Below are positions 36,398 to 64,000 of a stretch of 64,000 bases of DNA, piece by piece. Both the position numbers and the translations under genes were made by a program. The stretch is from the NCBI GenBank assembly GCA_903908245.1, contig CAIVRE010000018.1, positions 66,876 to 130,875 of the forward strand, in the 5' to 3' direction. This DNA comes from Candidatus Omnitrophota bacterium. Lineage in GTDB: Bacteria; Omnitrophota; Gorgyraeia; Zapsychrales; Fredricksoniimonadaceae. The notes beneath the pieces were generated by a model. It did not search any database. It was given only the letters and a program-made list of their open reading frames with translations, and was not told the origin of the DNA. Within the stretch, counting starts at the first letter, position 1. Each line of letters opens with the position of its first letter.

Positions 36398-36474
36398 GGG
36401 CCCGTAGCTCAGTTGGCTAGAGCACCGTGCTGATAACGCGGGGGTCAGTGGTTCGATTCCACTCGGGCCCACCA
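36398..36474 (+). tRNA. tRNA-Ile (GAT)
   Basis: GGGCCCGTAGCTCAG...CTGATAACG...GGTTCGATTCC...GGGCCCACCA; CCA is encoded; lies in the 16S-23S spacer. Confidence 0.9.
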
Positions 36475-36486
36475 GTTTTTAAAACT

Positions 36487-36561
36487 GGGGGCTGTAGCTC
36501 AGTTTGGGAGAGCGCCTGCTTTGCAAGCAGGAAGTCAGGAGTTCGATCCTCCTCAGCTCCA
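36487..36561 (+). tRNA. tRNA-Ala (TGC)
   Basis: GGGGCTGTAGCTCAG...CTTTGCAAG...; has the G3:U70 pair; no encoded CCA. Confidence 0.9.
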
Positions 36562-36683
36562 CAAAATTTCATGATGGGTAATAGATTGAAAACATTTCGC
36601 TCAGAACATCGAGCTTTGTTCTTTGACAATTATGTAATGTAAGGGTAACTACAAATTAAATAATTAGTTTCTCGTAATATTGT

Positions 36684-42077: not shown

Positions 42078-43970
42078 TCAACCCGTCTTTTTTATTGTTC
42101 TGTATGACGAGATATTGATTTTTTTCGGAGTAATGGAAACCTCTATCCACCCGTCAGGCTTTAGCCTGTCGTGGTGGATAGAAGTCTCCAAAACTTCCGG
42201 AGGAAGTTTTGGAGAGGTGGCCGAGTGGTTGAAGGCGCACGCCTGGAAAGTGTGTGACTGCAGAAATGTGGTCCCAGGGTTCGAATCCCTGCTTCTCCGT
42301 ATTTGATACCAATTCGAACCCTGGTGCTCCTGATCGAGGAGCGCCAGGGTTTCGATGTTTGTATGGGCCACGCAATATGGCTTGAAATCCCTTTCCTTGT
42401 CTTCAAACAAGCGATAATAGTCCGAATCCTTAGATAGTACTGGCTCGAGGCTGACCGGCCCTAAAAGCTCTTTTAAAGACAGGGAAGAGGCTAATGTGTC
42501 CTGGGAAAGTGTCTCGCTAAGTTTGGTCAGCCGGTTCTCGATCCATTCTTTGGGTGGGGCTTTAAAGGTGTTGTTGGTTTGGAACTCAAGGGATTGGATA
42601 TCCTGTTTGAGGTTAGTATCTTTTCGTTCTGCTTCTGTCAGGGCGTCTGCTACTGATTTGGACAGATTCCCGACTTTAATGAAGTTGATATAGTTTTGGA
42701 TCTCATCCTGCAATTTTGCGATCTCGGCACGTTTCTTCTTGAGGGTTTCCGGCGTCTTGTTTAATGTCGCAGCCGCTACTTTCTCGACCTTCTCGTAGAT
42801 GTATTCCAGGTTTTCGACGGTAAGGATCTTTTCTTTTAGGTCAGCGAGGATCTGTTCTTCGATCCTCTTTCGGGGGATGATAATGGTGTTCTTGCAGGTT
42901 TTTCTGCCGGCATTGTAACAGCCATAATAGCCCGTTGACTTGCCGCTCACCAGAACAATAGCACCGTCGCAAAGGCTGCATTTCATCAGGCCTGAGAAGA
43001 GGTGGGTGGGGCTGGTGTGGACGTAGCTCTTTTGTTTGTAGAATTTCTGGCGCTTTTTGCTGACAGGCCATGAACCTTCCATATCTTTCCAGCGTTGTTG
43101 CGCTTTATCCCAGGTGTCTTTATCGATAATGATAAGATCTTCACGGAAGAAGACCATCTGGTCTTTTACAGGTCGAGGCGTCGTCTTCTTTTTGCCCGTC
43201 ATAGGATCTCTGGAGGTTTTACTCCGTCGCCAGTCCCATTTCCCGATATAACGTTCGTTCTTCAGGATCCTGGAGAGGGTGGAGACATTCCAGCCATTTT
43301 TCTTACCCTTCTTTGTCGCCAGGCCTTCTTCATTGAAGAGGCAGGCGATCTTGTGAACGCTTTTTCCGGAAATGAATTCAATGAAGATTTTTTTAATGAT
43401 CTCGGCTTCTTCGGGGTTGATGACATGGATCCGGCCTTCATATTTCGCTTGACCGCGCTTATTCATGCGTAGTTCGCCGTAAGGCTTGGTGTAATAGCCA
43501 TAGACGTTCTCTCCGGCGCTAAAACCTCTCAGTTTTTGCCCTTCCAGACCGCGCATTGTCTTTTTTCTAAGGTCATCCAGATATAGCTCGTTTATCAATC
43601 CGCGCAGTTGAATGCCGAGCTTGGAGTTTTCGTCATCCGTGACGATTCCGTCAGATACGGAGATAAGTTTTACCTGCAGGTAGTTGAATTGAAGAACAAG
43701 TGTAAGCATTTGATGGTTGCTTCTGGAGAGGCGGGAGAGGTCGTCAACGACAACGGCTTCAAACTCGTGTTGTTCCATTGCTTTTGTTAATGCTTGCAGG
43801 GCAGGGCGGTTGATCAATGCGCCTGAAATGGCCTGATCTGTAAAAATGTGGTTATCATCGATGGTAATGTCATGCGCGGCACAGTAATTCTTACAGACGC
43901 GGATCTGGTCATCTAGACTTTTCTCGCTTTGGTTCTCTGAGGAATATCTGGCATAAATAGCGGCGCGCAT
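42078..43970 (-). CDS. large serine recombinase (resolvase/invertase-type catalytic domain + recombinase domain + zinc ribbon + coiled coil)
   Basis: N-terminus MRAAIYARYSSENQS...DDQ is the Ser-recombinase catalytic motif. A C4 zinc-ribbon (CSLCDG...CYNAGRKTC) follows. The last ~74 codons (42078-42300) are antisense to tRNA-Ser and its leader, so the real C-terminus may be shorter. Confidence 0.75.
   Translation of the reverse strand: MRAAIYARYSSENQSEKSLDDQIRVCKNYCAAHDITIDDNHIFTDQAISGALINRPALQALTKAMEQHEFEAVVVDDLSRLSRSNHQMLTLVLQFNYLQVKLISVSDGIVTDDENSKLGIQLRGLINELYLDDLRKKTMRGLEGQKLRGFSAGENVYGYYTKPYGELRMNKRGQAKYEGRIHVINPEEAEIIKKIFIEFISGKSVHKIACLFNEEGLATKKGKKNGWNVSTLSRILKNERYIGKWDWRRSKTSRDPMTGKKKTTPRPVKDQMVFFREDLIIIDKDTWDKAQQRWKDMEGSWPVSKKRQKFYKQKSYVHTSPTHLFSGLMKCSLCDGAIVLVSGKSTGYYGCYNAGRKTCKNTIIIPRKRIEEQILADLKEKILTVENLEYIYEKVEKVAAATLNKTPETLKKKRAEIAKLQDEIQNYINFIKVGNLSKSVADALTEAERKDTNLKQDIQSLEFQTNNTFKAPPKEWIENRLTKLSETLSQDTLASSLSLKELLGPVSLEPVLSKDSDYYRLFEDKERDFKPYCVAHTNIETLALLDQEHQGSNWYQIRRSRDSNPGTTFLQSHTFQACAFNHSATSPKLPPEVLETSIHHDRLKPDGWIEVSITPKKINISSYRTIKKTG
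42185..42215. repeat. 31-bp near-perfect palindrome overlapping the tRNA-Ser 5' end
   Basis: TCTCCAAAACTTCCG-G-AGGAAGTTTTGGAGA; the arms differ at one position; the last 5 nt are tRNA nt 1-5. Confidence 0.5.
42211..42299 (+). tRNA. tRNA-Ser (GGA)
   Basis: GGAGAGGTGGCCGAGTGGTTGAAGGCGCACGCCTGGAAAGTGTGT, a long variable arm, GGTTCGAATCC and CTTCTCCG; 89 nt, class II. Confidence 0.85.
42314..42354. repeat. imperfect ~17-bp-stem hairpin immediately 3' of tRNA-Ser, containing an inverted copy of the tRNA T-arm segment
   Basis: TCGAACCCTGGTGCTCC...GGAGCGCCAGGGTTTCGA; TTCGAACCCTGG is the reverse complement of tRNA nt CCAGGGTTCGAA. Confidence 0.4.
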
Positions 43971-44162: not shown

Positions 44163-44275
44163 ATCCCTTTAAGGGTATATAATAGTCAAGTATTATATAA
44201 AAAGGTTGACCGCTCTTCTATGTCTAAAATATACCACTTAATGGATAATTTGTCAAGTGACACGACGGGAGGTAT

Positions 44276-44477
44276 TATGGATCCAAAGGTATTGGGAAAG
44301 AAGATCAAGTTGGCAAGGGTGGAGCTTGATTTAACGCAAACAGATCTGGCCGATAAGATCGGGGCAAAGCAGAAGAGTGTTTCACGCTATGAGAACGGAG
44401 CTTCTACGCCGTCGCTTGAGACAATGGCTAAAATCGCTAAAGTGCTAAAGAGACCTGTGGATCATTTTGTACAATAA
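44276..44477 (+). CDS. XRE-family helix-turn-helix transcriptional regulator
   Basis: LTQTDLADKIGAKQKSVSRYENG is the HTH_3 motif; GGAGG SD before ATG 44276; divergent from the recombinase operon. Confidence 0.7.
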
Positions 44478-44501: not shown

Positions 44502-44526
44502 AAGCCGCCTTATGGCGGCTTTTTTA
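44502..44526 (+). terminator. intrinsic terminator (AAGCCGCC-TTAT-GGCGGCTT + TTTT)
   Basis: Perfect 8-bp stem plus a T-run after the XRE gene. Confidence 0.6.
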
Positions 44527-44617
44527 CGGATACACGACAGAACGCTGTCGTATTCGTTTTGTATATTAATAATCCGCTGTTTCACCACTTCCTAAGTGGC
44601 AACAATGAACAGGGGGC

Positions 44618-44635
44618 GCGACTTCTTCTTGTCGC
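44618..44635 (+). promoter_or_regulatory. palindromic operator copy 1 (GCGACT-N6-TGTCGC), 15 nt upstream of TATAAT (44651-44656)
   Basis: Same GCGACA-N6-TGTCGC family as the five downstream copies; sits upstream of the nuclease-WYL operon. Confidence 0.5.
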
Positions 44636-44666
44636 GCGTAGATATTTGAGTATAATAAGGATCTAT

Positions 44667-46238
44667 ATGAGTGAATCGTTTGACCAGCAGCAGTCTCATC
44701 ATGATCTTATTTACGACATCCTCGTCGAGAAGAATGCCGTAAAATCTTCCGGGACTCTTACAAAATCAAAATTCTTGAACGGGCTTCAATGTCCAAAACT
44801 TTTGTGGACCTGTTGTAATTCTTCCGAAACAATACCATCTCCTTCTGTCAGGACTCAACAAGTGTTCGATGTCGGGCATCAGGTTGGCGCGCTTGCTGTT
44901 GAGAGATTTCCTGGTGGACGCCATGTTCAAGAGGATGACTTCCTAAAGAATATTGAAGAGACGCAACTGCTTTTGGCTTTGAAAGATCCGCAGCCGATCT
45001 ATGAAGCGGGGATCAAGGCGGGACGGTTGTATTCCCGCGCTGATATCCTGGTTCCGTCGAAGACAGTATCCGGGGCCTGGGACATTGTCGAGGTTAAGTG
45101 CGGGGCCGGTGTTAAAGAAATTTATCTTCAGGACATTGCCTTTCAGCGTTATTGCTACGAACAGGCCGGGGTGAAGATCGGGCGTTGTTTCCTGATGCAT
45201 ATTAATAATGAATATGTTCGATGCGGTTCTATTGATGTTGAAAAGTTTTTTCATCTTGTTGATGTTACCGGTGATATTGTTTCGTTATCCGCGGCTTTGC
45301 CGGAAATTATTGACGGCTTTCTAAAGATCATTGATTTGCCTAAATGTCCTGAAGTTTGTATTGGCCAGTTTTGTGATACGCCGTATTCTTGTCAGATGAA
45401 GTCTTTGTGCTGGGAATTTCTTAAGCCCGGGAATGTGATGGAACTTCGCGGGCGTAAGGAGACGGCATTTAAGTTTTTAGAGCAGGGGATTGAACAGATC
45501 AGGGATATAACAGATCCGGAAAAGTTATCTGACGGGCCCATGATCCAGTATCAGTGTGCTTTGAGTGGAAAGCCTTTTGTCGATCATGAGAAGATCGCGG
45601 GTTTTGTTTCGGGGTTAAAATATCCCTTATATTTTATGGATTTTGAGACATTATTTGAGGCGATCCCGCGTTTTGACGGGACACGGCCTTATCAGCAGGT
45701 GCCATTCCAGTTTTCGGTACATTTACTGACGGGTCCCGGCGTATTTGCCGAGCACTTTGAATTCTTGCATAAAGAGTCGACAGACCCCCGTCCGGCGCTC
45801 TTTAAGGCGTTGCGTGAATGTTTGGATTCTAAAGGTACCATTCTTGCGTATGTCATGAGTTTTGAAAAAGCCAGGATCAGAGAACTTGGGGAAGCTTTTC
45901 CGGAACATGCTGGATGGTGCGCCAATGTTAGTGCCCGGATCGATGACCTTATCATTCCTTTCCGCAGTTTCTTTTATTATCATCCTGCTCAGCAGGGCTC
46001 TTCCTCGTTAAAGAAAGTTTTGCCTGCTCTGGTAGGCAGGGGGTATGAAGGCATGATGATCGCTGATGGGGCTCAGGCAACATCCGAATATGCCCGGGTG
46101 ACCTATGGTAAGGGAGTTGACCCTGTTGATCACGCTAAGGTCTATGAAGACCTTGAGGCCTATTGCGGGCTGGATACCATGGCGATGGTGTACATTTTAG
46201 AGAAGTTGAAACTATTGCAGAAAGGATCATCATTATGA
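44667..46238 (+). CDS. Cas4/RecB-like PD-(D/E)xK nuclease (with Cys cluster) fused to a DEDDy-type 3'-5' exonuclease domain
   Basis: N-terminal half has D...DIVEVKCG (D/EVK), a QxxxY motif (QDIAFQRY) and a C-x3-C-x4-C-x5-C cluster. C-terminal half has FMDFET (exo I DxE), a central acidic motif and YCGLD (YxxxD exo III). ATG at 44667 lies inside track ORF 44559. Confidence 0.55.
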   Translation: MSESFDQQQSHHDLIYDILVEKNAVKSSGTLTKSKFLNGLQCPKLLWTCCNSSETIPSPSVRTQQVFDVGHQVGALAVERFPGGRHVQEDDFLKNIEETQLLLALKDPQPIYEAGIKAGRLYSRADILVPSKTVSGAWDIVEVKCGAGVKEIYLQDIAFQRYCYEQAGVKIGRCFLMHINNEYVRCGSIDVEKFFHLVDVTGDIVSLSAALPEIIDGFLKIIDLPKCPEVCIGQFCDTPYSCQMKSLCWEFLKPGNVMELRGRKETAFKFLEQGIEQIRDITDPEKLSDGPMIQYQCALSGKPFVDHEKIAGFVSGLKYPLYFMDFETLFEAIPRFDGTRPYQQVPFQFSVHLLTGPGVFAEHFEFLHKESTDPRPALFKALRECLDSKGTILAYVMSFEKARIRELGEAFPEHAGWCANVSARIDDLIIPFRSFFYYHPAQQGSSSLKKVLPALVGRGYEGMMIADGAQATSEYARVTYGKGVDPVDHAKVYEDLEAYCGLDTMAMVYILEKLKLLQKGSSL

Positions 46239-47254
46239 CGGCAAAAAAGAAGATCGTTAAGAGCGGGCGGACAGGTAACAAGAAGAAGCTCGTGACTTTT
46301 AAGAGGACGGGAAGGGGAAAGAAGGCTGAAGGTCAGAAAAAGGCTGTGGAGCGCCTTATAACGATGCTTTCGATCTTGGATAAGGGCCGCTCGATCTCAT
46401 CCAAAGAAGTTTCGGATACCCTTCATGTTACTCAACGCACAGTTCAGAGAGATCTTAAGATCCTTCATGATGCGGGTTATCCTATTCAGGATCTTGAGAA
46501 CGGACGATACCAGTTCATGGAAGGCTTTTCCTTGCGCAAGGTTTCTTTGACAGAGGAGCAGGCGTCGCTCTTGTCGTTCATGTTCGATGTTGCATCCGGG
46601 TTAGGGGAGACTTTTGAAGCATCGTTCCGTGATCTTTTTAAACGCTTACTGGCCAAAGACCTTTATACGCCTTTCTATGCAAAGGTTCCGGTTAAACAGG
46701 CTCCGTTACCGGCGACGACACAGGTTAAGTTTCTTGAGGCGTCAATTCTTGAAAGCAACCGCATTAAGATCAAATATGTTTCAGCAACTCAAATTGAGAA
46801 AGAGTATTGTCTTGAGCCGCTGAAGATCGCATTCTTTGATGGGTTCTGGTATCTGATCGCGATCAAGAAAGGTGACAAGCAGATTCAAAAATACAGGGTG
46901 GACAGGGTGCTGGATGTAGAGATCCTGGAGGAGTCGTTTGCGCCTTCTGTAAATATTGACAAGATCCTCGGTGACAGCGTTAATATCTGGTTTGACGAGG
47001 TGCGAGGTGAGCGGGTTCTGATCAGGGTGGCGCCGGATGCGGTTCAGTATTTTAAGGAGCAAAAATATCTTCCGCTTCAAAAGACGGTTGAGGAGCGTAA
47101 GGATGGATCAATTGTGATCGAGACCTTTCCGGCTAACCTGGATGAGATCAAGCACATTGTCATGCATTGGGTGCCTTGTTTAACTGTGCTTGAGCCGGCG
47201 GGTTTCAAGGCCGAGATCAAGGCGATGGTGGAGGGGTATTTGAAGGATTGTTAA
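46235..47254 (+). CDS. HTH-WYL domain transcriptional regulator (BrxR/CapW-like) with Lys-rich N-terminal extension
   Basis: wHTH (ITMLSILDKGRSISSKEVSDTLHVTQRTVQRDLKIL) followed by a WYL domain (FFDGFWYLIAIKKGD...YRVDRV); the start overlaps the nuclease stop (ATGA). Confidence 0.65.
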   Translation: MTAKKKIVKSGRTGNKKKLVTFKRTGRGKKAEGQKKAVERLITMLSILDKGRSISSKEVSDTLHVTQRTVQRDLKILHDAGYPIQDLENGRYQFMEGFSLRKVSLTEEQASLLSFMFDVASGLGETFEASFRDLFKRLLAKDLYTPFYAKVPVKQAPLPATTQVKFLEASILESNRIKIKYVSATQIEKEYCLEPLKIAFFDGFWYLIAIKKGDKQIQKYRVDRVLDVEILEESFAPSVNIDKILGDSVNIWFDEVRGERVLIRVAPDAVQYFKEQKYLPLQKTVEERKDGSIVIETFPANLDEIKHIVMHWVPCLTVLEPAGFKAEIKAMVEGYLKDC

Positions 47255-47296: not shown

Positions 47297-48268
47297 ATGG
47301 CAGGTAAAAAAGCTGTAAAAATTGAGGTTAAGAAGAAAGATGGCCCCTTTAAGAATTTTGATGAGAAGGGTAAGCTGGCCGAAGAGGGGACTTTAAAGAA
47401 TGGTGAGTTGGAGGGACTTTATAAGGAGTACGATGTAAACGGGAAGTTGGTTGAAGAAGCCGTTTATAAAAGTGGACTTAAGGATGGTCTTTTAAAGGCA
47501 TATTATGAAAATGGGAAAGTTGAGCATGAAATAGATCACAAACGTGGTATTCCGAATGGAATGTGTAAGTTTTATGATCCGAAAGGAATATTGCGCGAAG
47601 AGGGTTTTTATAAGAATGGGTTGAAGGAGGGCGTGTATAAATTCTACGATGAAAAGGGATTGCTGAGTAGAGAGGCAATCTTTAAGAATGGCAGTGAATT
47701 GCCGTCTAAGAATTTGTTAAAACAAACGTCCAAGAAGGTTTCTTCTAAGGTGCTTACGAAGACTCAAATTAGACAGTATTTGTTAGATGATTTAGTTCTT
47801 CGTATGTGTGCGGGGCCTGAAAGATTGCAACAGGTTAAGTTTATGCCAGCAGTGTTCAATTTTCTTCGGGATTTGAAGCTTAAGCACCCATTCTTCCCGC
47901 AATCTATTGATTCTAAGGAGTTGGAGAAATTTTATATTGATCCAGGAAGCGACGCGCAGAAGACTATTGCAAGTGTTGGCAAGAAGATCGAAGGTGGCTT
48001 GAAAAAGTTTAATAAAGATCAGTATGGAGCATTTTGTGAAATCGTTTGTAAAGATCAGTCTATCATTTTAGCGTTCTTATTAATTTCTGGAGCGTATGCA
48101 AGTATGGAATATTCCGTTGCCTTACTGGCTAGTCAGTGTCTTATTCCCGGATTTTCGGATATTAATGAGAAAACGTACGAGCATGATAAGGTGAGGCTTA
48201 TGATAGATACAGAGGACATCTTGGAGAAGTTTAGTCTGCCGCTATTTCCTTCCAGGAAGGAATCGTAG
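47297..48268 (+). CDS. MORN-repeat protein (YwqK-like N-terminal repeats) with unknown C-terminal domain
   Basis: Repeated G-x-L-E/K-G-x-Y-K-x-Y-x-x-N-G-K units. Confidence 0.5.
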   Translation: MAGKKAVKIEVKKKDGPFKNFDEKGKLAEEGTLKNGELEGLYKEYDVNGKLVEEAVYKSGLKDGLLKAYYENGKVEHEIDHKRGIPNGMCKFYDPKGILREEGFYKNGLKEGVYKFYDEKGLLSREAIFKNGSELPSKNLLKQTSKKVSSKVLTKTQIRQYLLDDLVLRMCAGPERLQQVKFMPAVFNFLRDLKLKHPFFPQSIDSKELEKFYIDPGSDAQKTIASVGKKIEGGLKKFNKDQYGAFCEIVCKDQSIILAFLLISGAYASMEYSVALLASQCLIPGFSDINEKTYEHDKVRLMIDTEDILEKFSLPLFPSRKES

Positions 48269-48405
48269 ATTGTGATTGATCTGTTTAACTCATTTTCGTT
48301 TCGATGGCATGTCGGTAAAGTGACTGTTAATAAGGGCCGGGGGTTCAAAGCCGAGACTATGGCAGACACATATTTGAAGGATGGTTAAAGAGTGGTGGGA
48401 ATCTT

Positions 48406-49031
48406 ATGAACCTGACTGATTTGAGAATTGTTGTTAAAGACTTGCTAATGAAGCGGGTTTATTGTTGTGAGGCGGATTTGCAGTTTTCTTTGGCCTGGAA
48501 ATTAAAAGAAAAAGATAACGATGTTCGTTTGGAGATTCCTTTTCATGGGATTGAAGATGAGGAAGGAAGAAGGAGTACCTGGATGTTCTCTTTTTATCAT
48601 CGACGAAAGAAAAGATCGGAGTGGAGCTAAAATATAAGACATCAAATTTTCCTTATGTTGATGCTTTTGCAGGGGCGCTTACCTTGAAAGATCATGGTGC
48701 ACAGGATCTTGGTTTATATGATTTCTTATGGGATGTGTACCGTTTGGAGCAATTTTGTAAGGATTCAAAGGTAGATCGGGGGTTTGCTGTCTTTGTTACG
48801 AATGATTACAGCTATAAAAATGACGTAAAGCGTCAGAAATCGAACGCCAACCAGTTTCGGTTGCCTGAAAATAGATTGATCACAGGGAGTTTGGCCTGGG
48901 GTAATCCTGATGCCGGGTCTTTAGGAAGCCGATTGTCAGAATTTAAATTGTACGGGCAGTATTCTGTAAATTGGGTTGATATTGAAGGTACTCATTTTTC
49001 ATTCCTGATTTTTGAGGTTTTAAGGCCTTAG
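48406..49031 (+). pseudogene. hypothetical gene apparently split by a +1/-1 frameshift at an A/G-rich tract (two overlapping ORFs, 48406-48630 and 48621-49031)
   Basis: The ORFs overlap by 10 nt in different frames at CGACGAAAGAAAAGATCGGAG. This could be a genuine frameshift, a programmed slip or a sequencing error. Confidence 0.3.
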
Positions 49032-49062
49032 AAACGGGTAATTGGTTGTCCTTTTTTGAAGG

Positions 49063-49080
49063 CGACAGGATGCTGTCGCC
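49063..49080 (+). promoter_or_regulatory. palindromic operator copy 2 (GCGACA-GGATGC-TGTCGC), 10 nt upstream of TATAAT
   Basis: Read directly; precedes phosphatase A. Confidence 0.5.
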
Positions 49081-49120
49081 TTCATGCTTTATAATCCATG
49101 CAGCTAAAAAGGAGGCTGAT

Positions 49121-50092
49121 ATGGCAGTAAGAAAAGATGATTCGGATGAGGGACGCATGTTTGAGGTTGCTGATTATGGGCGTGAACTTCCAAGGGAGAT
49201 TGATCCCGGCAAGCCGTATTGGGTGTTAGGTGGTAAGGCGGCGTTGTTTGGCATGCCGCATCCGAATCGACTCGCCAGGGATGGTCAGAAGGATCTGTTC
49301 AAAAGACTTCAGAATGCCAAAGTGCAGGTAATTATCAATCTGTCTGGGAGAAGGTATGCGAATCCTGATCCGAATTGGTTTGATTACCAAGAGTTTTTTA
49401 TCACTGACGGTGGTCCGATGGATGGAGAACAGAATATTCTTTGGGCGGCCGTTGCGTATGTTGTGAAGTCATTAAAAGCCGGGAAAAGTGTTGTGATCCA
49501 TTGTGAAGGCGGAACAGGACGCACGGGTGTGACAATAGGGTGCGTGTTGTGCAAGCTTGGAAAAGGAACCGGTCAGGACATCGCGATTTGGTTAAGTGAG
49601 CTTAATAATAGACGCCCCGGGAAACGCTGGCCTGAGGCCTCTATTCAAGGGAAGATCGTTCGGGAATGCTGTCCGGATAAGAAAGGCAATGATCGTCAGG
49701 TGATTGATCCGGCAACGCGCAATATTAAGGAAGTGTCGCTTTTTTCTGATGAAGAAAGAAGCTTTATGTGTACGGTTGTAGCCGTCAATGGAGATCGGAT
49801 TACAGTGCGCCGGCATGATACGGGAGAGGTTATTGAGGTTTCCAGCAGGTTCCTGCAGAAGCAGGAGCGGCCTCGGGAAGAACAAAGGAATGTGCAGGAT
49901 ATATTTGCATCGGCCACTCCGGAAGATCTTCAGGAAAGAGCTCGTCAGTATCCCTATATCCTTTTGGATGAGGTTCAACGGACGCTGGCGCTTTTTGCTA
50001 AGAAGTTGTCTTCAGCGAAGGCTGAGAAACTAAAGAATGATCTTTTAGATATTAATGCACGGATAGAGGTCCTTAAGAAAAAGATCAATTAA
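49121..50092 (+). CDS. Cys-based protein phosphatase-fold protein A (CX5R P-loop HCEGGTGRTG) with ~150 aa C-terminal extension
   Basis: VVIHCEGGTGRTGVTIGC is the PTP/DUSP-type active site. Paralog of 51664-52248 over the N-terminal ~190 aa. ATG inside track ORF 49046; coordinate ±1. Confidence 0.55.
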   Translation: MAVRKDDSDEGRMFEVADYGRELPREIDPGKPYWVLGGKAALFGMPHPNRLARDGQKDLFKRLQNAKVQVIINLSGRRYANPDPNWFDYQEFFITDGGPMDGEQNILWAAVAYVVKSLKAGKSVVIHCEGGTGRTGVTIGCVLCKLGKGTGQDIAIWLSELNNRRPGKRWPEASIQGKIVRECCPDKKGNDRQVIDPATRNIKEVSLFSDEERSFMCTVVAVNGDRITVRRHDTGEVIEVSSRFLQKQERPREEQRNVQDIFASATPEDLQERARQYPYILLDEVQRTLALFAKKLSSAKAEKLKNDLLDINARIEVLKKKIN

Positions 50093-50160: not shown

Positions 50161-50178
50161 GCGACACGATGTTGTCGC
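50161..50178 (+). promoter_or_regulatory. palindromic operator copy 3 (GCGACA-CGATGT-TGTCGC), followed by TGT-TATTAT extended -10
   Basis: Read directly. Confidence 0.5.
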
Positions 50179-51084: not shown

Positions 51085-51639
51085 GTGCCTATGAAGTGGA
51101 GTGAGTTTGTTCAACGAAAAGAAGCGTATAAAAAGACCTGGGCGTTGCTTAAGGCTGAATATGCGCCCGAGAATCCGGTAAGAAAGTTCCTGGATAAGGC
51201 TTACATGAACATCTTCTTCAATGGAAAGCAAATTGATTTTAATTTAGATCCGTACACTATTGCACGTGACACTCCGGATTTCTTCGTTAAGAATAAATAT
51301 TTTAATGAATATCTTGAGTTGATTAAGACATGTAAGGCATTGGAAGATTTGTCTTATAAAGAGAAAAAGACGAAGGTTACTAACGAATTCGATCACAATG
51401 GAACTATAAGGAAGAAAGTCAGTCGATTAGATATGAAAAAGAAAGAACTTCAGCAGTTTGATGTCAATCAACTTGAAGTGGTGCCTAATCGCGCGGAAAT
51501 GATCGTCTCGACGATAGATATGGATATTATTCAGAATATCAAGGGGTCAAAGTTCTGCGATCAAGAGGCAACCTTAATGAGTCGTGCCTCAATACGGGTG
51601 ATCCTTGTTGGCGGTGATAAATTGGGATATCCATGGTAA
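51085..51639 (+). CDS. hypothetical protein X1 (paralog of 52414-52905)
   Basis: MKWSEF... and the C-terminal IDMDIIQNIKGSKFCDQEATLMSRASIRVIL align with the paralog's MTWDEF... and VDMDLIQQIKNSPYCDQEKTMMRPASINVVL. Confidence 0.4.
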   Translation: MPMKWSEFVQRKEAYKKTWALLKAEYAPENPVRKFLDKAYMNIFFNGKQIDFNLDPYTIARDTPDFFVKNKYFNEYLELIKTCKALEDLSYKEKKTKVTNEFDHNGTIRKKVSRLDMKKKELQQFDVNQLEVVPNRAEMIVSTIDMDIIQNIKGSKFCDQEATLMSRASIRVILVGGDKLGYPW

Positions 51640-51663
51640 AAGAACGATCAAGGGAGAGCAAAT

Positions 51664-52248
51664 ATGCCTGTTATGACTGAAGAACTGGATGAGCCGCGCA
51701 TCTATGAGATCGCTGATTATGGAAAACCTCTGCCGCGGGTTATGAATCCTTTGAGGGCGTATCGTGTCCTTGACGGCAACGCGTCGTTATTCGGGATGCC
51801 GCATCCGTCCATTCTTAAGGAAATAGACCGCAAGCAGTTGTTTGCTCAATTGTATGAGGACGGAGTTCGTTATCTTATTAATCTGACTAAAGAAAATTCA
51901 GGTGCTTCATATTCCGACAGGATTTTATTATCATCGTTTTGTCCTGTTACGGATCAGGGACCAAAAGGGGCTATTGAAAAGACTATGCTTTTATCGGGCG
52001 TAGATAGCGCGGTAGCGGCTTTAAAGAATGGCGAGGGGGTTGTGATCCATTGTTGGGGAGGAACCGGGCGTACGGGGACGGCCATCGGGTGTATTTTACG
52101 CAAGCTGGGTAAAGGCTCCGGTGTAGAGATTGTGAATTGGCTTGGTGAGTTGAATCAAAGGCGTGAAAGGCATTGGCCGGAGTCACCGGTACAGGCTGAA
52201 GTGGTTAGGGAGTGTCAGCCGGGGGAAGATTTCTTTGATAGGCTGTAA
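51664..52248 (+). CDS. Cys-based protein phosphatase-fold protein B (HCWGGTGRTG)
   Basis: VVIHCWGGTGRTGTAIGC; the N-terminus IADYGKPLPRVMNP...LFGMPHPS is paralogous to protein A. Confidence 0.55.
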   Translation: MPVMTEELDEPRIYEIADYGKPLPRVMNPLRAYRVLDGNASLFGMPHPSILKEIDRKQLFAQLYEDGVRYLINLTKENSGASYSDRILLSSFCPVTDQGPKGAIEKTMLLSGVDSAVAALKNGEGVVIHCWGGTGRTGTAIGCILRKLGKGSGVEIVNWLGELNQRRERHWPESPVQAEVVRECQPGEDFFDRL

Positions 52249-52330
52249 TCTTTAAGGCAGAGAATTTTGAACGCTGTTGTTATTAAGGCCGGGCGACATG
52301 AAAGTGTTATCCGGTTTTTCTTTTTACTAA

Positions 52331-52348
52331 ACGACAGGATGCTGTCGC
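52331..52348 (+). promoter_or_regulatory. palindromic operator copy 4 (ACGACA-GGATGC-TGTCGC)
   Basis: Read directly; preceded by a hairpin resembling the 50117 terminator. Confidence 0.45.
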
Positions 52349-52413
52349 GTGAGTGTTTTAAGGTTATGTACGGTGTTGATCCGGGCAGGCAGGTGAATCG
52401 GGCGGGGGGTGTT

Positions 52414-52905
52414 ATGACATGGGATGAGTTTCTGGCAGAAAAGAAGTTGTATGTTCAATCCTGGAAGAAAATGAAAGAGGGCGCTACAGAAGATATGCAG
52501 AAGTTTCTGAGCAAGTCCTGGATCGTGGTGTATTGCAAACAGCAGTTTGATATTGATGCGGATTTTATGACTGTTTTTAATGAATGTCCTTCATTCTTTC
52601 AAAATGTGCCAAGGTTCACCAGGATCAAAGCGCTCTGTGAAGAGATGAAGACGCTTGAGAAACGCATTAAGCGGGAGAAAGAAAACCATAGTGACCTGCT
52701 GGAAGATAAGAAAGATCTTCAAGAAGAAATAGCGGAGTTGTGTCCGGGGGAGCTTCCAGTTGATGATTCCTGGAGGATTGAGGTCAGGTTTCCTACTGTA
52801 GATATGGATCTGATCCAACAGATCAAGAATTCTCCGTATTGTGATCAGGAAAAGACAATGATGCGCCCTGCCTCTATTAATGTGGTGTTGAAGAACGTAC
52901 TGTAA
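52414..52905 (+). CDS. hypothetical protein X2 (paralog of 51085-51639)
   Basis: See X1. The start was chosen by paralog alignment; alternatives are ATG 52366 and the track start 52267. Confidence 0.4.
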   Translation: MTWDEFLAEKKLYVQSWKKMKEGATEDMQKFLSKSWIVVYCKQQFDIDADFMTVFNECPSFFQNVPRFTRIKALCEEMKTLEKRIKREKENHSDLLEDKKDLQEEIAELCPGELPVDDSWRIEVRFPTVDMDLIQQIKNSPYCDQEKTMMRPASINVVLKNVL

Positions 52906-53319: not shown

Positions 53320-53337
53320 GCGACAGGATGTTGTCGC
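53320..53337 (+). promoter_or_regulatory. palindromic operator copy 5 (GCGACA-GGATGT-TGTCGC), followed by TGT-TATACT extended -10
   Basis: Read directly. Confidence 0.5.
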
Positions 53338-54841: not shown

Positions 54842-55157
54842 TGCCCGTATAGCGCATATTAACCGTTATTTTGCTGTCTATTTAACTGTTATTTCGGTGG
54901 TCCTTGTTTTGGTCATTTCCGGATCTCCCGTTGCTATTTCATTGTCACATTTCGATAGAGATATGCCTGTTGGTTTCGGCAAGGGGATGGCGCACGGGTT
55001 TTTGCTGTCTGTGAACCTTATCCGTTCGATCTTTGATGTTCGGACAGGTATTTACCAGATACCCAACACTGGAATGGGATACAACGCAGGGTTCTTTCTG
55101 GGCATTATTTTATGGTTCGCTATCGGGCGTATGGGGGAAGAAACGAAGGCGACATGA
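54828..55157 (+). CDS. small hypothetical membrane protein (109 aa)
   Basis: ATG 54828 inside track ORF 54792; two predicted TM helices; overlaps the J-protein 3' end. Confidence 0.35.
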   Translation: MSLFDARIAHINRYFAVYLTVISVVLVLVISGSPVAISLSHFDRDMPVGFGKGMAHGFLLSVNLIRSIFDVRTGIYQIPNTGMGYNAGFFLGIILWFAIGRMGEETKAT

Positions 55158-55166
55158 GGCTGTCGC
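55149..55166 (+). promoter_or_regulatory. palindromic operator copy 6 (GCGACA-TGAGGC-TGTCGC)
   Basis: Read directly; precedes the long downstream operon. Confidence 0.5.
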
Positions 55167-57192: not shown

Positions 57193-58482
57193 ATGGAAAA
57201 ACTTGTGATCAATGGCGGAGTGCCGCTTAAAGGTGAAGTATTCATTTCTGGATCGAAGAACGCTTCTTTGCCGGCCATGGCCGCGACATTGTTAACGGAT
57301 GAGCCTTGTGTTCTTAAGAATGTGCCAGTGGTTTCGGATATTAACACAATGAGTAATCTTTTAATGACTCTGGGTAAGGATGTTAAACGGGATAAGGATG
57401 CTTTGATCATCACATCAAAAGGCCGGTTGAAGCCATTGGCTGATTATCGCCTTGTATCAACGATGCGCGGGTCAGTGTGCGTGCTCGGCCCCCTTCTGGC
57501 TCGACTTGGAGAAGCGCGGGTGGCTTTGCCTGGCGGATGTGTTATTGGTGTCAGGCCGGTCGACTTGCATCTTAAAGGCTTTGAAAGTCTTGGGGCCAGG
57601 ATCGATATTGAGGGTGGATATATTATCGCCAAGTCTTCAAGGCTTAAAGGGGCACGCATGTATCTTGCAGGGGCCATGGGGCCTTCTGTTCTTGGCACAG
57701 CAAATGTGATGATGGCCGCAACCCTGGCCACAGGCGAGACAACCATTGAGGGGGCGGCCTGTGAGCCGGAGATCAAGGACCTCGCCGATCTTTTGAACCT
57801 TATGGGGGCGAAAATAAGCGGCCACGGCAGCCCTACGGTGGTCATTGAAGGTGTTAAACGACTGCACGGGGTTGAGTACAAGGTTTCAGCTGATCGCATT
57901 GAGGCCGGAACATTCATTCTATTGTCAGCCATGACACGGGGAAATGTGATCGTTCGCGGCGTTGAACATCATCGTCTTTTGTCTGTGGTGGATGCGTTGA
58001 ATGAAGCTGGTGTTGCATGTGAATGCCGCGGAGCTTCAGTGCGCGTAAAGTCACCAGCAAGATTTAAGCCAGTGAATGTAACAACCCATCCTTATCCGGG
58101 GTTTCCGACAGATCTTCAGGCTCAGTACATGGCCATGATGACGCTGGCAGATGGGGTGAGTTCTGTTAGGGATACAGTTTTTCCGGACAGATTCATGCAT
58201 CTTGCTGAACTAGCGCGCATGGGGGCCAAGGTTCGTCGTGAAGGGGGCGTGGCGGTCATTGAAGGGGTTAAGGAGCTCAAGGGTGCCCCTGTGATGGCGT
58301 CGGATTTAAGGGCGTCTGTGGCGCTGGTTATGGCCGGTGTTGTGGCTAAAGGGCAGACAGAGGTCCGCCGTATATACCATCTCGACCGTGGATATGAGGG
58401 CATTGACCGGAAATTGATCGATTTAGGGGCTAAAGTAAGACGGGAACAGGATAAAGTTGTGCCTAATGAGGAGATCGGATAA
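57193..58482 (+). CDS. murA: UDP-N-acetylglucosamine 1-carboxyvinyltransferase paralog (MurA2)
   Basis: About two-thirds identical by eye to the MurA at 2017-3279 across the full length. Retains [13 protein letters not shown] with the Cys and carries a ~10 aa C-terminal extension. Confidence 0.9.
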   Translation: MEKLVINGGVPLKGEVFISGSKNASLPAMAATLLTDEPCVLKNVPVVSDINTMSNLLMTLGKDVKRDKDALIITSKGRLKPLADYRLVSTMRGSVCVLGPLLARLGEARVALPGGCVIGVRPVDLHLKGFESLGARIDIEGGYIIAKSSRLKGARMYLAGAMGPSVLGTANVMMAATLATGETTIEGAACEPEIKDLADLLNLMGAKISGHGSPTVVIEGVKRLHGVEYKVSADRIEAGTFILLSAMTRGNVIVRGVEHHRLLSVVDALNEAGVACECRGASVRVKSPARFKPVNVTTHPYPGFPTDLQAQYMAMMTLADGVSSVRDTVFPDRFMHLAELARMGAKVRREGGVAVIEGVKELKGAPVMASDLRASVALVMAGVVAKGQTEVRRIYHLDRGYEGIDRKLIDLGAKVRREQDKVVPNEEIG

Positions 58483-62275: not shown

Positions 62276-62899
62276 ATGTTAAAGATAGATAAAGTATTTG
62301 GGTATGGTGAGGACGGGTTAACCTTGCGCTTCTTTACGACGCAACTGGAAGACTTCTTGAAAATTGTTGAGGATTCTTCTGCCCCGGATGATTGCAAGTT
62401 CTTTTACAGGCCTTCTTTTGGGAGAGGCGGAAGGAATTCAAAATCAACCTTTGGTGAGTTTGACGGGATTTTGTCGACTCCCCGGAAGATTTATCTTATT
62501 GAAAGTAAGTGCTGGGCGAATTCCAGAAAACCGTTCTTATTAGATAAAGCTCAGATGTTAAGGCACGAGATATTTAAGAAATACTATGAAGTGTGGGAAA
62601 AGGGTACGAAGTGGGAGGAAATTAAGCTTGAGTTCCTTGGCAAGCTTCTTCCTTCCGGGGATAGCCTGTTGGCAAAGAATTTATCGAGGATCCTGGATCA
62701 GTTGATGTCGGATACGGGAGCCAGAAAAGAGATCATGAATGTTTTGATCTTTTTTGTTCCTGAAGGGGTAACCCGCAAAGCTTCTTTTTCCGTAGCTCCG
62801 CAAGTTAAAGAAAAGTTCACAGTGCTTTTTTGTCGTGGCGCTAGTGCATCTTTTGAGCTTTTCGAGAAGCCGGATCCCTGCGACATAACGCTGTCGTAG
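62276..62899 (+). CDS. hypothetical protein with possible PD-(D/E)xK-like core
   Basis: GEFDGIL...IYLIESKCW fits a D...(D/E)xK pattern; weak. Confidence 0.3.
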   Translation: MLKIDKVFGYGEDGLTLRFFTTQLEDFLKIVEDSSAPDDCKFFYRPSFGRGGRNSKSTFGEFDGILSTPRKIYLIESKCWANSRKPFLLDKAQMLRHEIFKKYYEVWEKGTKWEEIKLEFLGKLLPSGDSLLAKNLSRILDQLMSDTGARKEIMNVLIFFVPEGVTRKASFSVAPQVKEKFTVLFCRGASASFELFEKPDPCDITLS

Positions 62900-62943: not shown

Positions 62944-64000
62944 ATGAAGATCATCATTCATCGCGGTACAAAAGAGATCGGCGGGAACTGTGTAGAGATT
63001 TGCACAGAACAGACGCGCCTTATCCTCGATCTTGGCATGCCATTGGTTGATCCCCGGGACAAAACAAAAAAGTTTGAGAGTTTCTCTGTAAGCCGCATGA
63101 CACTGCTCCAAATGCTCGATGCGGGCATCCTTCCAGCAGTTAAAGGCCTTTATGAGGGCCTTGACGACGTTAAGCCGGTCGATGCGCTCCTCTTGTCTCA
63201 TCCCCATCAGGATCATTACGGCTTTTGCAAGTATATCCGTAAAGACATCCCTGTTTATCTAAGCCAGGATGCAAATTTGATGCTGGGTGCTTCTGATGTG
63301 TTTCTACCCACACGGTTTGGCATACATGACCAGCGGAGGTTCTTTCAAGATCGCACACCGGTGCAGATCGGCGATTTCAAGGTAACGCCCTATTTAATGG
63401 ACCACTCCGGCTACGGGGCGATGGCGTTTCTGGTAGAGGCGGATGGGAAAAAGATCTTTTACAGCGGTGACTTTCGCGGGCATGGGCGCAAGAGTGCGCT
63501 TTTTGATAAATTACTAAGATTGCCTCCTTCTGGTATTGATGTTCTACTCATGGAAGGCACGATGGTCGATCGCACAGGGGAAGGTGTTGATACGGAACAA
63601 CAGCTTGAGAATCGGATCGTTAAGGAAACGCGGCAATATCCGGGCATGAAGTTGATCCAGTGTTCCGCGCAGAACATCGACAGGGTTGTAACTTTCTACA
63701 GGGCGGCGAAACGGTCCGGCGCTATATTTGTGATGGATCTGTATGTGGCGAATGTTATTCATGCGCTTGAGCGCAAAAGCCTGCCAGATCCATTTAATGG
63801 GTTTAAGGATGTGCAGGTGCTTTTTACGAAGCATTTTATGAAAAGACTGGAACAGAAGAAGATCCCGGACTGGTACAAGAGGTGGCGGCCTTATGAGGTC
63901 AGATCATCGGAATTGAAGCGGGCGGGCGGCAATGTTTTTGCATTTTATCGGGAGAATTCTGAACCTGAACTTGAGCCGGCAGGCATTCCTTCGGGGTCAG
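62944..64000 (+). CDS. metallo-beta-lactamase-fold hydrolase, 3' partial (runs off the window end)
   Basis: LLSHPHQDHYG (HxHxDH) and later D/H motifs. ATG 62944 preceded by AGGCG. No stop before 64000, so it is absent from the track. Confidence 0.6.
   Translation, partial: MKIIIHRGTKEIGGNCVEICTEQTRLILDLGMPLVDPRDKTKKFESFSVSRMTLLQMLDAGILPAVKGLYEGLDDVKPVDALLLSHPHQDHYGFCKYIRKDIPVYLSQDANLMLGASDVFLPTRFGIHDQRRFFQDRTPVQIGDFKVTPYLMDHSGYGAMAFLVEADGKKIFYSGDFRGHGRKSALFDKLLRLPPSGIDVLLMEGTMVDRTGEGVDTEQQLENRIVKETRQYPGMKLIQCSAQNIDRVVTFYRAAKRSGAIFVMDLYVANVIHALERKSLPDPFNGFKDVQVLFTKHFMKRLEQKKIPDWYKRWRPYEVRSSELKRAGGNVFAFYRENSEPELEPAGIPSGS

Follow-up and report, generated by a model that had tools for sequence, protein, structure and literature searches.

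A DUF2779 dual nuclease and a WYL regulator of predicted DriD/PafBC affinity share an operator-led operon in an Omnitrophota genomic island

What kind of regulator controls a two-domain nuclease gene, and what the two genes do together, is the question raised by an operon of Candidatus Omnitrophota bacterium (GenBank assembly GCA_903908245.1, contig CAIVRE010000018.1, positions 66,876 to 130,875 of the forward strand; this whole stretch of 64,000 nt is the window, and its own numbering is used below). The operon comprises gene A (44667-46238, forward strand; 523 aa), which encodes a dual nuclease of the DUF2779 family, and gene B (46235-47254, forward strand; 339 aa), which encodes a WYL-type transcriptional regulator. 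The initial annotation, made from the letters alone, had described the pair as a Cas4-like nuclease and DEDDy exonuclease fusion co-transcribed with a BrxR/CapW-like regulator. On balance, the analysis reported here favors the view that the two genes form the core operon of a DriD/PafBC-type WYL-controlled regulon, probably triggered by single-stranded DNA (ssDNA), with the dual nuclease as its hallmark output.

The start codon of gene A is an ATG preceded by AAGGA. A longer open reading frame (ORF) beginning with TTG at 44559 is unlikely to represent gene A, since it starts upstream of the predicted promoter and since independent ENA contigs carry the identical call of 523 aa. The protein is divided into a Cas4-like PD-(D/E)xK domain (about residues 30-255; 44754-45431, forward strand) and a DEDDy (DnaQ-like) 3'-5' exonuclease domain (about residues 320-518; 45624-46220, forward strand). 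In an alignment of 44 homologues with 44-69% identity, the PD-(D/E)xK core residues D126, D139, E142-V-K144, and Q160 were invariant or nearly so. The RecB-type motifs D...ExK and QxxxY are represented by D126, E142-V-K144, and Q160-xxx-Y164, where Y164 was read in the window protein. Four cysteines of the Fe-S type, one N-terminal (C42) and three C-terminal (C236-x5-C242-x5-C248), were invariant in the 44 sequences and are predicted to hold a cluster. The exonuclease motifs Exo I (D325-F-E327-T), Exo II (N-x-S-F-E400), and Exo III (Y499-CGL-D503) were also invariant or nearly so, with Glu (E400) replacing Asp as the acidic residue of Exo II.

Pfam assigned DUF2779 (PF11074) alone to the gene A product, at residues 322-447 within the exonuclease domain; the match covers the whole profile (1-126) and scores 133.6 bits (E = 6e-39), the gathering cut-off being 23.3. 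The AlphaFold model of the nuclease (predicted local distance difference test score, pLDDT, 91.9; predicted template modelling score, pTM, 0.86) gave Cas4 8d3l as its best Foldseek match (E = 8.5e-6), and the protein shows the features of the RNase H-like exonuclease fold. A single-sequence search against the PDB returned nothing, a profile search against the PDB returned just a weak match to a putative Pol I at the NxSFE motif, and PADLOC, NCBIfam, and PHROGs recognized nothing useful for the nuclease. Judged by its conserved residues and its predicted model, the gene A product thus carries both nuclease folds and both sets of catalytic residues. The RecB/Cas4-type core fused to a C-terminal DnaQ-like exonuclease, as proposed in the initial annotation, is borne out by the conserved motifs, the Pfam DUF2779 match, and the Foldseek match to Cas4; the domain searches support the folds, and the catalytic residues are present on alignment of the 44 homologues.

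The fusion of a Cas4-like and a DEDDy domain is already known from the literature. Majorek et al. (2014) described DUF2779 as the RNase H-like exonuclease family F.17, which co-occurs with DUF83/PD-(D/E)xK (PMC3985635), and the same two domains were dissected in a 2026 paper in MMSYN1_0389, a protein that is quasi-essential in JCVI-syn3.0 (PMC13621843). The gene A product has the two-domain layout of MMSYN1_0389/F.17 in common, and D...ExK, the four acidic residues, and the Tyr are kept in both; however, all four Fe-S cysteines are found in the window protein versus two in the mycoplasma protein. From Cas4 and solo-Cas4 proteins it differs by the Cx5Cx5C spacing of its cysteines and by the fused DEDDy exonuclease. 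The Pfam profile Cas_Cas4 (PF01930) matched 24 of the 44 homologues weakly (best E = 2.1e-5) and did not match the window protein at E<=1. No short-spaced direct repeats of a CRISPR array were found anywhere in the window, and no cas genes, including cas1 and cas2, were found among the neighbors of gene A; the domain is therefore at most 'solo Cas4-like'. Full-length DUF2779 homologues numbered 2747 at E<=1e-5 and range over many bacterial phyla and the DPANN archaea, and no conserved gene neighborhood was found across this wider family. To our knowledge, no function or regulation is known for any DUF2779 member. Unlike the described members, gene A is operon-linked to a WYL regulator and an operator, and this regulatory link appears to be new, as no report tying DUF2779 to a WYL regulator and a CGACA-N6-TGTCG operator was found in the literature searched.

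The stop codon of gene A overlaps the start codon of gene B in an ATGA, which confirms the overlap noted at first. The gene B product was matched in Pfam by HTH_11, WYL, and WCX, and its predicted model (pLDDT 74) shows disordered residues 1-30 and a helical bundle between the helix-turn-helix (HTH) and WYL domains, so that the protein is laid out as a winged HTH (wHTH), a bundle of three helices (3HB), WYL, and WCX. The Lys/Arg-rich, disordered N-terminal tail (residues 1-36; 46235-46342, forward strand) contains 15 K/R among the first 38 residues. It had been pointed out as atypical, and it proved to be real and restricted to one subclade: it is kept only in proteins at least 47% identical to the window protein and is missing from farther relatives. 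The winged HTH (46343-46492, forward strand) has the recognition helix QRTVQRD, whose R68 and R72 (RxxxR) are invariant in the alignment of the WYL family. In PafB, it is this RxxxR pattern that reads the GTC triplet (PMC8635444), and SiwR requires it to bind DNA (PMC10693628). In the WYL domain (FFDGFWYL, KYRVDR), which together with the WCX dimerization domain spans 46733-47239 on the forward strand, G203, F204, W205, and Y206 of the FFDGFWYLIA stretch are invariant in the family.

Among the known WYL regulators, the gene B product is predicted to stand closest to DriD and PafBC. A phmmer search of PDB sequences returned only PafBC (6sj9, the best match, E = 1.9e-5), DriD (E of about 2e-4), and PafC, and no BrxR or CapW chain at E<=1. 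Foldseek with the gene B model ranked DriD first (3.5e-15), followed by PafBC (1.6e-14), CapW (8.7e-10), and BrxR (1e-8). DriD, the homodimeric WYL activator of the SOS-independent DNA damage response of Caulobacter crescentus, has the wHTH-3HB-WYL-WCX layout in common with the gene B product. Residues Y181, Y206, Y220, and R221 of the latter align with the DriD ssDNA contacts Y168, Y192, W206, and the adjacent arginine, and R224 likewise aligns with a DriD contact. The two differ in the WYL motif, which is canonical in the gene B product and NYL in DriD, and in the extra Lys-rich tail. PafBC, which acts in mycobacteria by 'sigma adaptation' at promoters with a -26 element, has the RxxxR recognition helix in common with the gene B product; however, it is a heterodimer or a fusion with a non-palindromic site and one HTH on the DNA, whereas here a single 339-aa chain is accompanied by a full palindrome. 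PafBC also does not bind DNA without RNA polymerase. BrxR and CapW, the WYL repressors of BREX and CBASS, resemble gene B in their wHTH-WYL-WCX architecture and in having a palindromic operator close to their own gene, but they are a far weaker fold match and no sequence match. The RWHVR motif carried by the CapW and BrxR repressors (PMC11662680) is replaced by FWYLI in the gene B product. Sequence and predicted fold therefore place the gene B product nearer to DriD/PafBC than to BrxR/CapW, and it is best regarded as a putative new, distant member of the DriD/PafBC kind.

Next, the candidate operator was located. The palindrome CGACA-N6-TGTCG occurs in seven exact copies in the window, all of them intergenic and all between 44535 and 62896. 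Copy 1, CGACAGAACGCTGTCG, lies at 44535-44550 in front of the pair, as the initial annotation had placed it, and is a predicted WYL-dimer site centered at about -31.5 of promoter P1. Copy 2 (49063-49078) has a TATAAT 11 nt downstream and precedes a PTP-type phosphatase gene, copy 3 (50162-50177) is followed by a 70-aa ORF, a metallophosphatase gene, and more genes, and copy 4 lies at 52332-52347. Copy 5 (53321-53336) precedes the gene of a membrane protein with a DnaJ domain, copy 6 (55150-55165) a 134-aa ORF and an AAA ATPase gene, and copy 7 (62881-62896) an MBL-fold nuclease-like gene starting at 62944. With up to one mismatch, 10 matches were found in the window against 1.4 expected, and none of 100 shuffles reached 10. 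The extended form is GCGACA-N6-TGTCGC, and its 18-bp form is GCGACAGAACGCTGTCGT.

The palindrome was then followed in two collections of loci: a genome set of 82 loci picked solely for encoding a DUF2779 relative, and a metagenome set of 80 loci picked solely for encoding a WYL relative (34-83% identity). A WYL orthologue was present in 8 of the 82 DUF2779 loci, and the palindrome was found in exactly those 8, with no copy in the approximately 725 kb of the 74 loci without the orthologue. In the metagenome set, 72 of the 80 loci contained the palindrome, with 119 copies in 552 kb versus an estimated 0.5 or so by chance, and the WYL gene is usually preceded by a copy about 70 nt upstream. Assignment of the operator to the upstream XRE gene was weighed and rejected, since this gene is absent from related loci that keep the operator. 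As the palindrome tracks the WYL family across loci and the XRE gene is not conserved, the palindrome is assigned to the WYL protein as its operator, with binding predicted from sequence. The central N6 (operator positions 6-11, for example 44540-44545) is asymmetric, with the -10-oriented consensus y-A-A-y-G-c (A in 81% at position 8, G in 75% at position 10), and this asymmetry suggests contacts that depend on orientation, either with RNA polymerase or with a single subunit of the dimer.

The pairing of nuclease and regulator recurs elsewhere. The initial annotation had proposed looking for the fusion beside WYL genes in other genomes, and DUF2779 turned out to be the most frequent neighbor of the WYL family, in 25 of the 80 loci and in 14 of the 37 loci of at least 5 kb. 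The WYL gene immediately follows the nuclease gene, in the same orientation, in the window and in loci L005 to L007. The pair is spaced farther apart, or is spread over successive operons of one array, in L003, L004, and L029. A divergent arrangement around one palindrome, flanked on both sides by a -10 box at 10-11 nt, occurs in L084, L089, and about ten metagenome loci. The two genes thus stay linked when their order is rearranged. Further recurrent neighbors of the WYL family are MBL-fold nuclease-like proteins (13 loci), DnaB-like ATPases (10), MORN proteins (8), ParB-methyltransferases (8), and AAA ATPases (7). One Omnitrophica metagenome-assembled genome (MAG) contains three DUF2779-WYL pairs (L003 and L007 on CAIUQE010000034.1, 4330-30037, and L006), two of them within about 26 kb of one contig and each inside a one-strand array of operator-led operons. 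Its paralogous regulators appear to have one common operator consensus, and cross-talk between them is therefore likely. No description of clustered multi-operon arrays under one WYL operator was found in the literature searched.

The promoter of the operon was delimited as follows. An intrinsic terminator of the upstream XRE gene (44504-44525, forward strand; GCCGCC-TTAT-GGCGGC followed by T6) parts that gene from the nuclease operon. The -10 box of P1, TATATT (44562-44567, forward strand), begins exactly 11 nt past the TGTCG of operator copy 1, and a -35 box is absent. A secondary site, CGACTTCTTCTTGTCG (44619-44634; CGACT-N6-TGTCG), is located in the 5' leader of the nuclease operon. Its TTGTCG is also a -35-like hexamer 16 nt from a TATAAT (44651-44656), and L005 and L006 have a like site 56-84 nt downstream of their main operator; the region 44619-44656 (forward strand) may tentatively be taken as a basal, self-repressed promoter P2.

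The same arrangement, with a T-rich terminator tail upstream and a -10 box downstream, was seen at most operator copies. Among 124 distinct operator copies used for spacing, a TAnnnT was located 11 nt (87 copies) or 10 nt (31 copies) past TGTCG in 118 (95%), and no other offset on that side exceeded 19; the sequence of the spacer between operator and -10 box was not conserved. Among 149 promoters scored for -35 and -10 elements, 146 (98%) matched TTGACA at no more than three of six positions with any spacer of 16-18 nt, and 100 had a -10 box matching at five or more of six positions. This geometry resembles that of known activator promoters. The DriD site, ATACGAC(N7)GTCGTAT, is found in promoters that lack a -35 box, where it covers the -35 position and keeps a fixed distance to the -10 box (PMC13004042). 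Its palindrome has the CGAC/GTCG half-sites of the window operator, separated by N7 versus N8 here, and the DriD targets are dispersed, whereas the window has its targets grouped within one island. The PafBC motif is tGTCgg(N10)tA(N3)T, with TGTC 12 nt from TAnnnT and no -35 box (PMC8635444); motif and spacing equal the TGTCGC(N10)TAnnnT found here, which likewise lacks a -35 box. Since the half-sites, the fixed spacing to the -10 box, and the missing -35 box match the DriD and PafBC activator promoters, activation by the gene B product is, by analogy, reasonably likely to be its mode of action rather than repression. The operators of BrxR and CapW differ from the window operator in layout and position, the BrxR boxes being downstream of the -10 box (PMC9122601). 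The label 'BrxR/CapW-like' of the initial annotation was accordingly given up: BrxR and CapW gave no PDB sequence match and a weaker Foldseek match, RWHVR is absent, and the operator and promoter geometry is DriD/PafBC-like.

In the model proposed here, the gene B product would act as a homodimer-type wHTH-3HB-WYL-WCX factor on GCGACA-N6-TGTCGC, at the place usually occupied by the -35 box, with the promoter-proximal TGTCG 11 nt upstream of a strong -10 box and the dimer centered near -31.5. Because the promoters have no -35 box, RNA polymerase would need the bound factor, by which it would be either recruited, as in the DriD model, or adapted, as in the 'sigma adaptation' of PafBC. The WYL domain would, by analogy to DriD, PafBC, and CapW, sense ssDNA from DNA damage or from invading or replicating foreign DNA, and this signal would switch on its own operon together with at least six further operons of the island. 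The nuclease would use the Cas4-like Fe-S domain for 5' single-stranded ends and the DEDDy domain in the 3'-5' direction, so that ssDNA would be trimmed or destroyed from both ends. Its output would be the processing of damaged or foreign DNA, and the removal of the inducing ssDNA would provide negative feedback. A regulon containing nucleases is known from DriD, which controls recJ and bapE as well as replication genes (PMC9186387, PMC13004042).

Several observations weigh against this model. The similarity of the gene B product to DriD and PafBC is remote (17% identity to DriD; PDB sequence E-values of 1e-4 to 1e-5), and DriD K202 and R204 are not conserved, Gln being aligned there. The majority of DUF2779 genes have no WYL neighbor. 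The cargo of the island's other operons is neither a classic repair set nor a known defense set: its products are MurA, an AAA ATPase, a PAD-type deiminase, a membrane protein with a DnaJ domain, MORN and TPR proteins, and phosphatases of the PTP, metallo-, and HAD types. The island adjoins a serine recombinase gene and a tRNA gene and may be mobile cargo. An operator over the -35 region is a classic repressor position as well, and an extended -10 element (TGn), found in 39 of the 149 promoters (26%), could allow firing without an activator. By the analogy of CapW, which senses ssDNA and yet represses, repression with ssDNA-triggered release would give an equal induction logic.

In a rather unlikely alternative, a BrxR/CapW-type repressor silences a nuclease-based anti-phage module or defense island until infection or damage releases it, and the nuclease degrades phage DNA. 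WYL regulators frequently adjoin defense systems (PMC9122601), and ssDNA releases CapW (PMC11662680). The overlap of operator and core promoter is compatible with occlusion, the extended -10 box is present in 26% of the promoters, and the secondary site at 44619, over its -35-like hexamer, fits self-repression. The low-GC island with its variable cargo beside a recombinase is also in keeping with such a role, as are the phosphatase domains, whose matching Pfam models take their names from polymorphic toxin and 'Swiss Army Knife' conflict systems. However, PADLOC detected no defense protein among the nuclease and five neighboring proteins: the two regulators matched generic WYL/HTH models only, the nuclease and the three other non-regulator proteins (47297-50092) had no match, and no BREX, CBASS, or other system was found adjoining the pair. 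BrxR and CapW, besides lacking a sequence match, stand 5-7 orders of magnitude below DriD and PafBC in Foldseek, the RWHVR motif is missing, and the BrxR boxes have their different place and layout. Moreover, the lack of a usable -35 box in 98% of promoters, together with the fixed -10 spacing and the drifting spacer, is typical of activator-dependent promoters. The initial annotation had offered a defense module or the effector of a larger regulon; the nuclease does lie within a larger operator-sharing regulon, whereas the defense module found no direct support, either from PADLOC or from a conserved DUF2779 neighborhood. The nuclease-WYL pair may or may not have a role in defense.

A less probable alternative is that the operon belongs to the core of an integrative mobile element or degraded prophage, with the WYL protein as a damage-sensing induction switch and the DUF2779 protein as a recombination or replication exonuclease. 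At the edge of the island, a tRNA-Ser(GGA) gene (42210-42300, forward strand) is crossed by a large serine recombinase ORF (42078-43970, reverse strand; 630 aa), the 3' end of which runs antisense through it, followed by a 62-aa ORF and the XRE repressor-like gene (44220-44477), and the GC content falls from about 0.50 to about 0.44. A mobile origin of the island itself is likely, because of its low GC and its start at a tRNA-Ser with a large serine recombinase. In related arrays, DnaB-like helicases and ParB-methyltransferases occur, the WYL gene of L089 is followed about 8-10 kb downstream by a Rep_1 gene and a partial phage-integrase gene, and L084 is an IMG/VR contig. The gene B product matched phrog_13105 (E = 1.4e-20), and three DUF2779-WYL pairs are present in the one MAG described above. 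On the other hand, genes for a capsid, portal, or terminase were not seen in related loci or in the 22 kb that the island occupies within the window, and a DUF2779 relative was found on only 5 IMG/VR contigs. The operator plus -10 pattern gave 37 matches in all of IMG/VR, mostly single and judged to be no more than chance. No att-type repeat of the tRNA-Ser was found within the window, and other loci do not keep the recombinase and XRE genes next to the pair.

That the palindromes are RNA hairpins, acting as terminators or processing sites between operons and not as protein operators, is very improbable: two copies were flagged as terminator-like (44534-44551 and 49057-49084) and all are intergenic, but the stem sequence does not vary from genome to genome, the palindrome goes with one regulator family (present in 72 of 80 loci that encode it and in 0 of 74 that lack it), a real terminator with a T-run lies upstream of each copy, the -10 box follows at a fixed 10-11 nt, and no Rfam family besides tRNA was matched in 42-50.5 kb.

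The remaining content of the island is described here for completeness. A full-length MurA gene (57193-58482; EPSP_synthase family, E = 6e-100) lies inside the operator-marked island, flanked by the AAA ATPase gene and by MORN, TPR, PAD-type deiminase, EndoVII/HNH-like, and HAD genes, several of them being WYL-gene neighbors in other genomes as well. A segmental duplication (49031-50092 and 51085-52905; about 70% identical DNA including the operator, repeats D1, D4, and D5) contains two PTP/DSP-type phosphatase genes (49046-50092 and 51664-52248) and two paralogous small genes of an unnamed family (51085-51639 and 52339-52905), which recurs directly beside DUF2779 in L005, L006, and L029. The MBL-fold (Lactamase_B_2) nuclease-like gene directly behind operator copy 7 (62944-64000) continues past the window end, and its homologues with an RMMBL domain are the second most frequent neighbors of the WYL family (the 13 loci given above). 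The overlapping ORFs 48406-48630 and 48621-49031 resemble one small gene split by a frameshift; a D...ELKYK pattern in 48406-49031 might be a PD-(D/E)xK motif, and the region had no database match. A few kb upstream of the island, tRNA-Ile(GAT) and tRNA-Ala(TGC) genes stand side by side (36398-36562), as is usual in the spacer of an rRNA operon.

In summary, genes A and B appear to form the core of a DriD/PafBC-type regulon, and the link between the WYL regulator and its operator is the first regulatory context for DUF2779 enzymes. It places the DUF2779 protein of the window under a regulator type that, wherever tested, reads out ssDNA, and it supplies a sharply defined operator-promoter cassette for the DUF2779/WYL pair. 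In addition, the promoter grammar of DriD and PafBC now reaches new phyla and a regulon of the clustered, island type. A wider proposal, possible rather than probable, is that DriD/PafBC-style activation without a -35 box is an old, portable promoter-plus-operator cassette that reaches beyond the Alphaproteobacteria and Actinobacteria, and that in the Omnitrophota and some other uncultured lineages it drives islands of at least seven operons from one ssDNA-sensing WYL dimer. DUF2779 would then be the signature effector, a dual-polarity ssDNA exonuclease that executes the response, whether repair or the destruction of foreign DNA, and clears the inducer. If true, this would be the first function for a widespread nuclease family that includes the quasi-essential member of JCVI-syn3.0.

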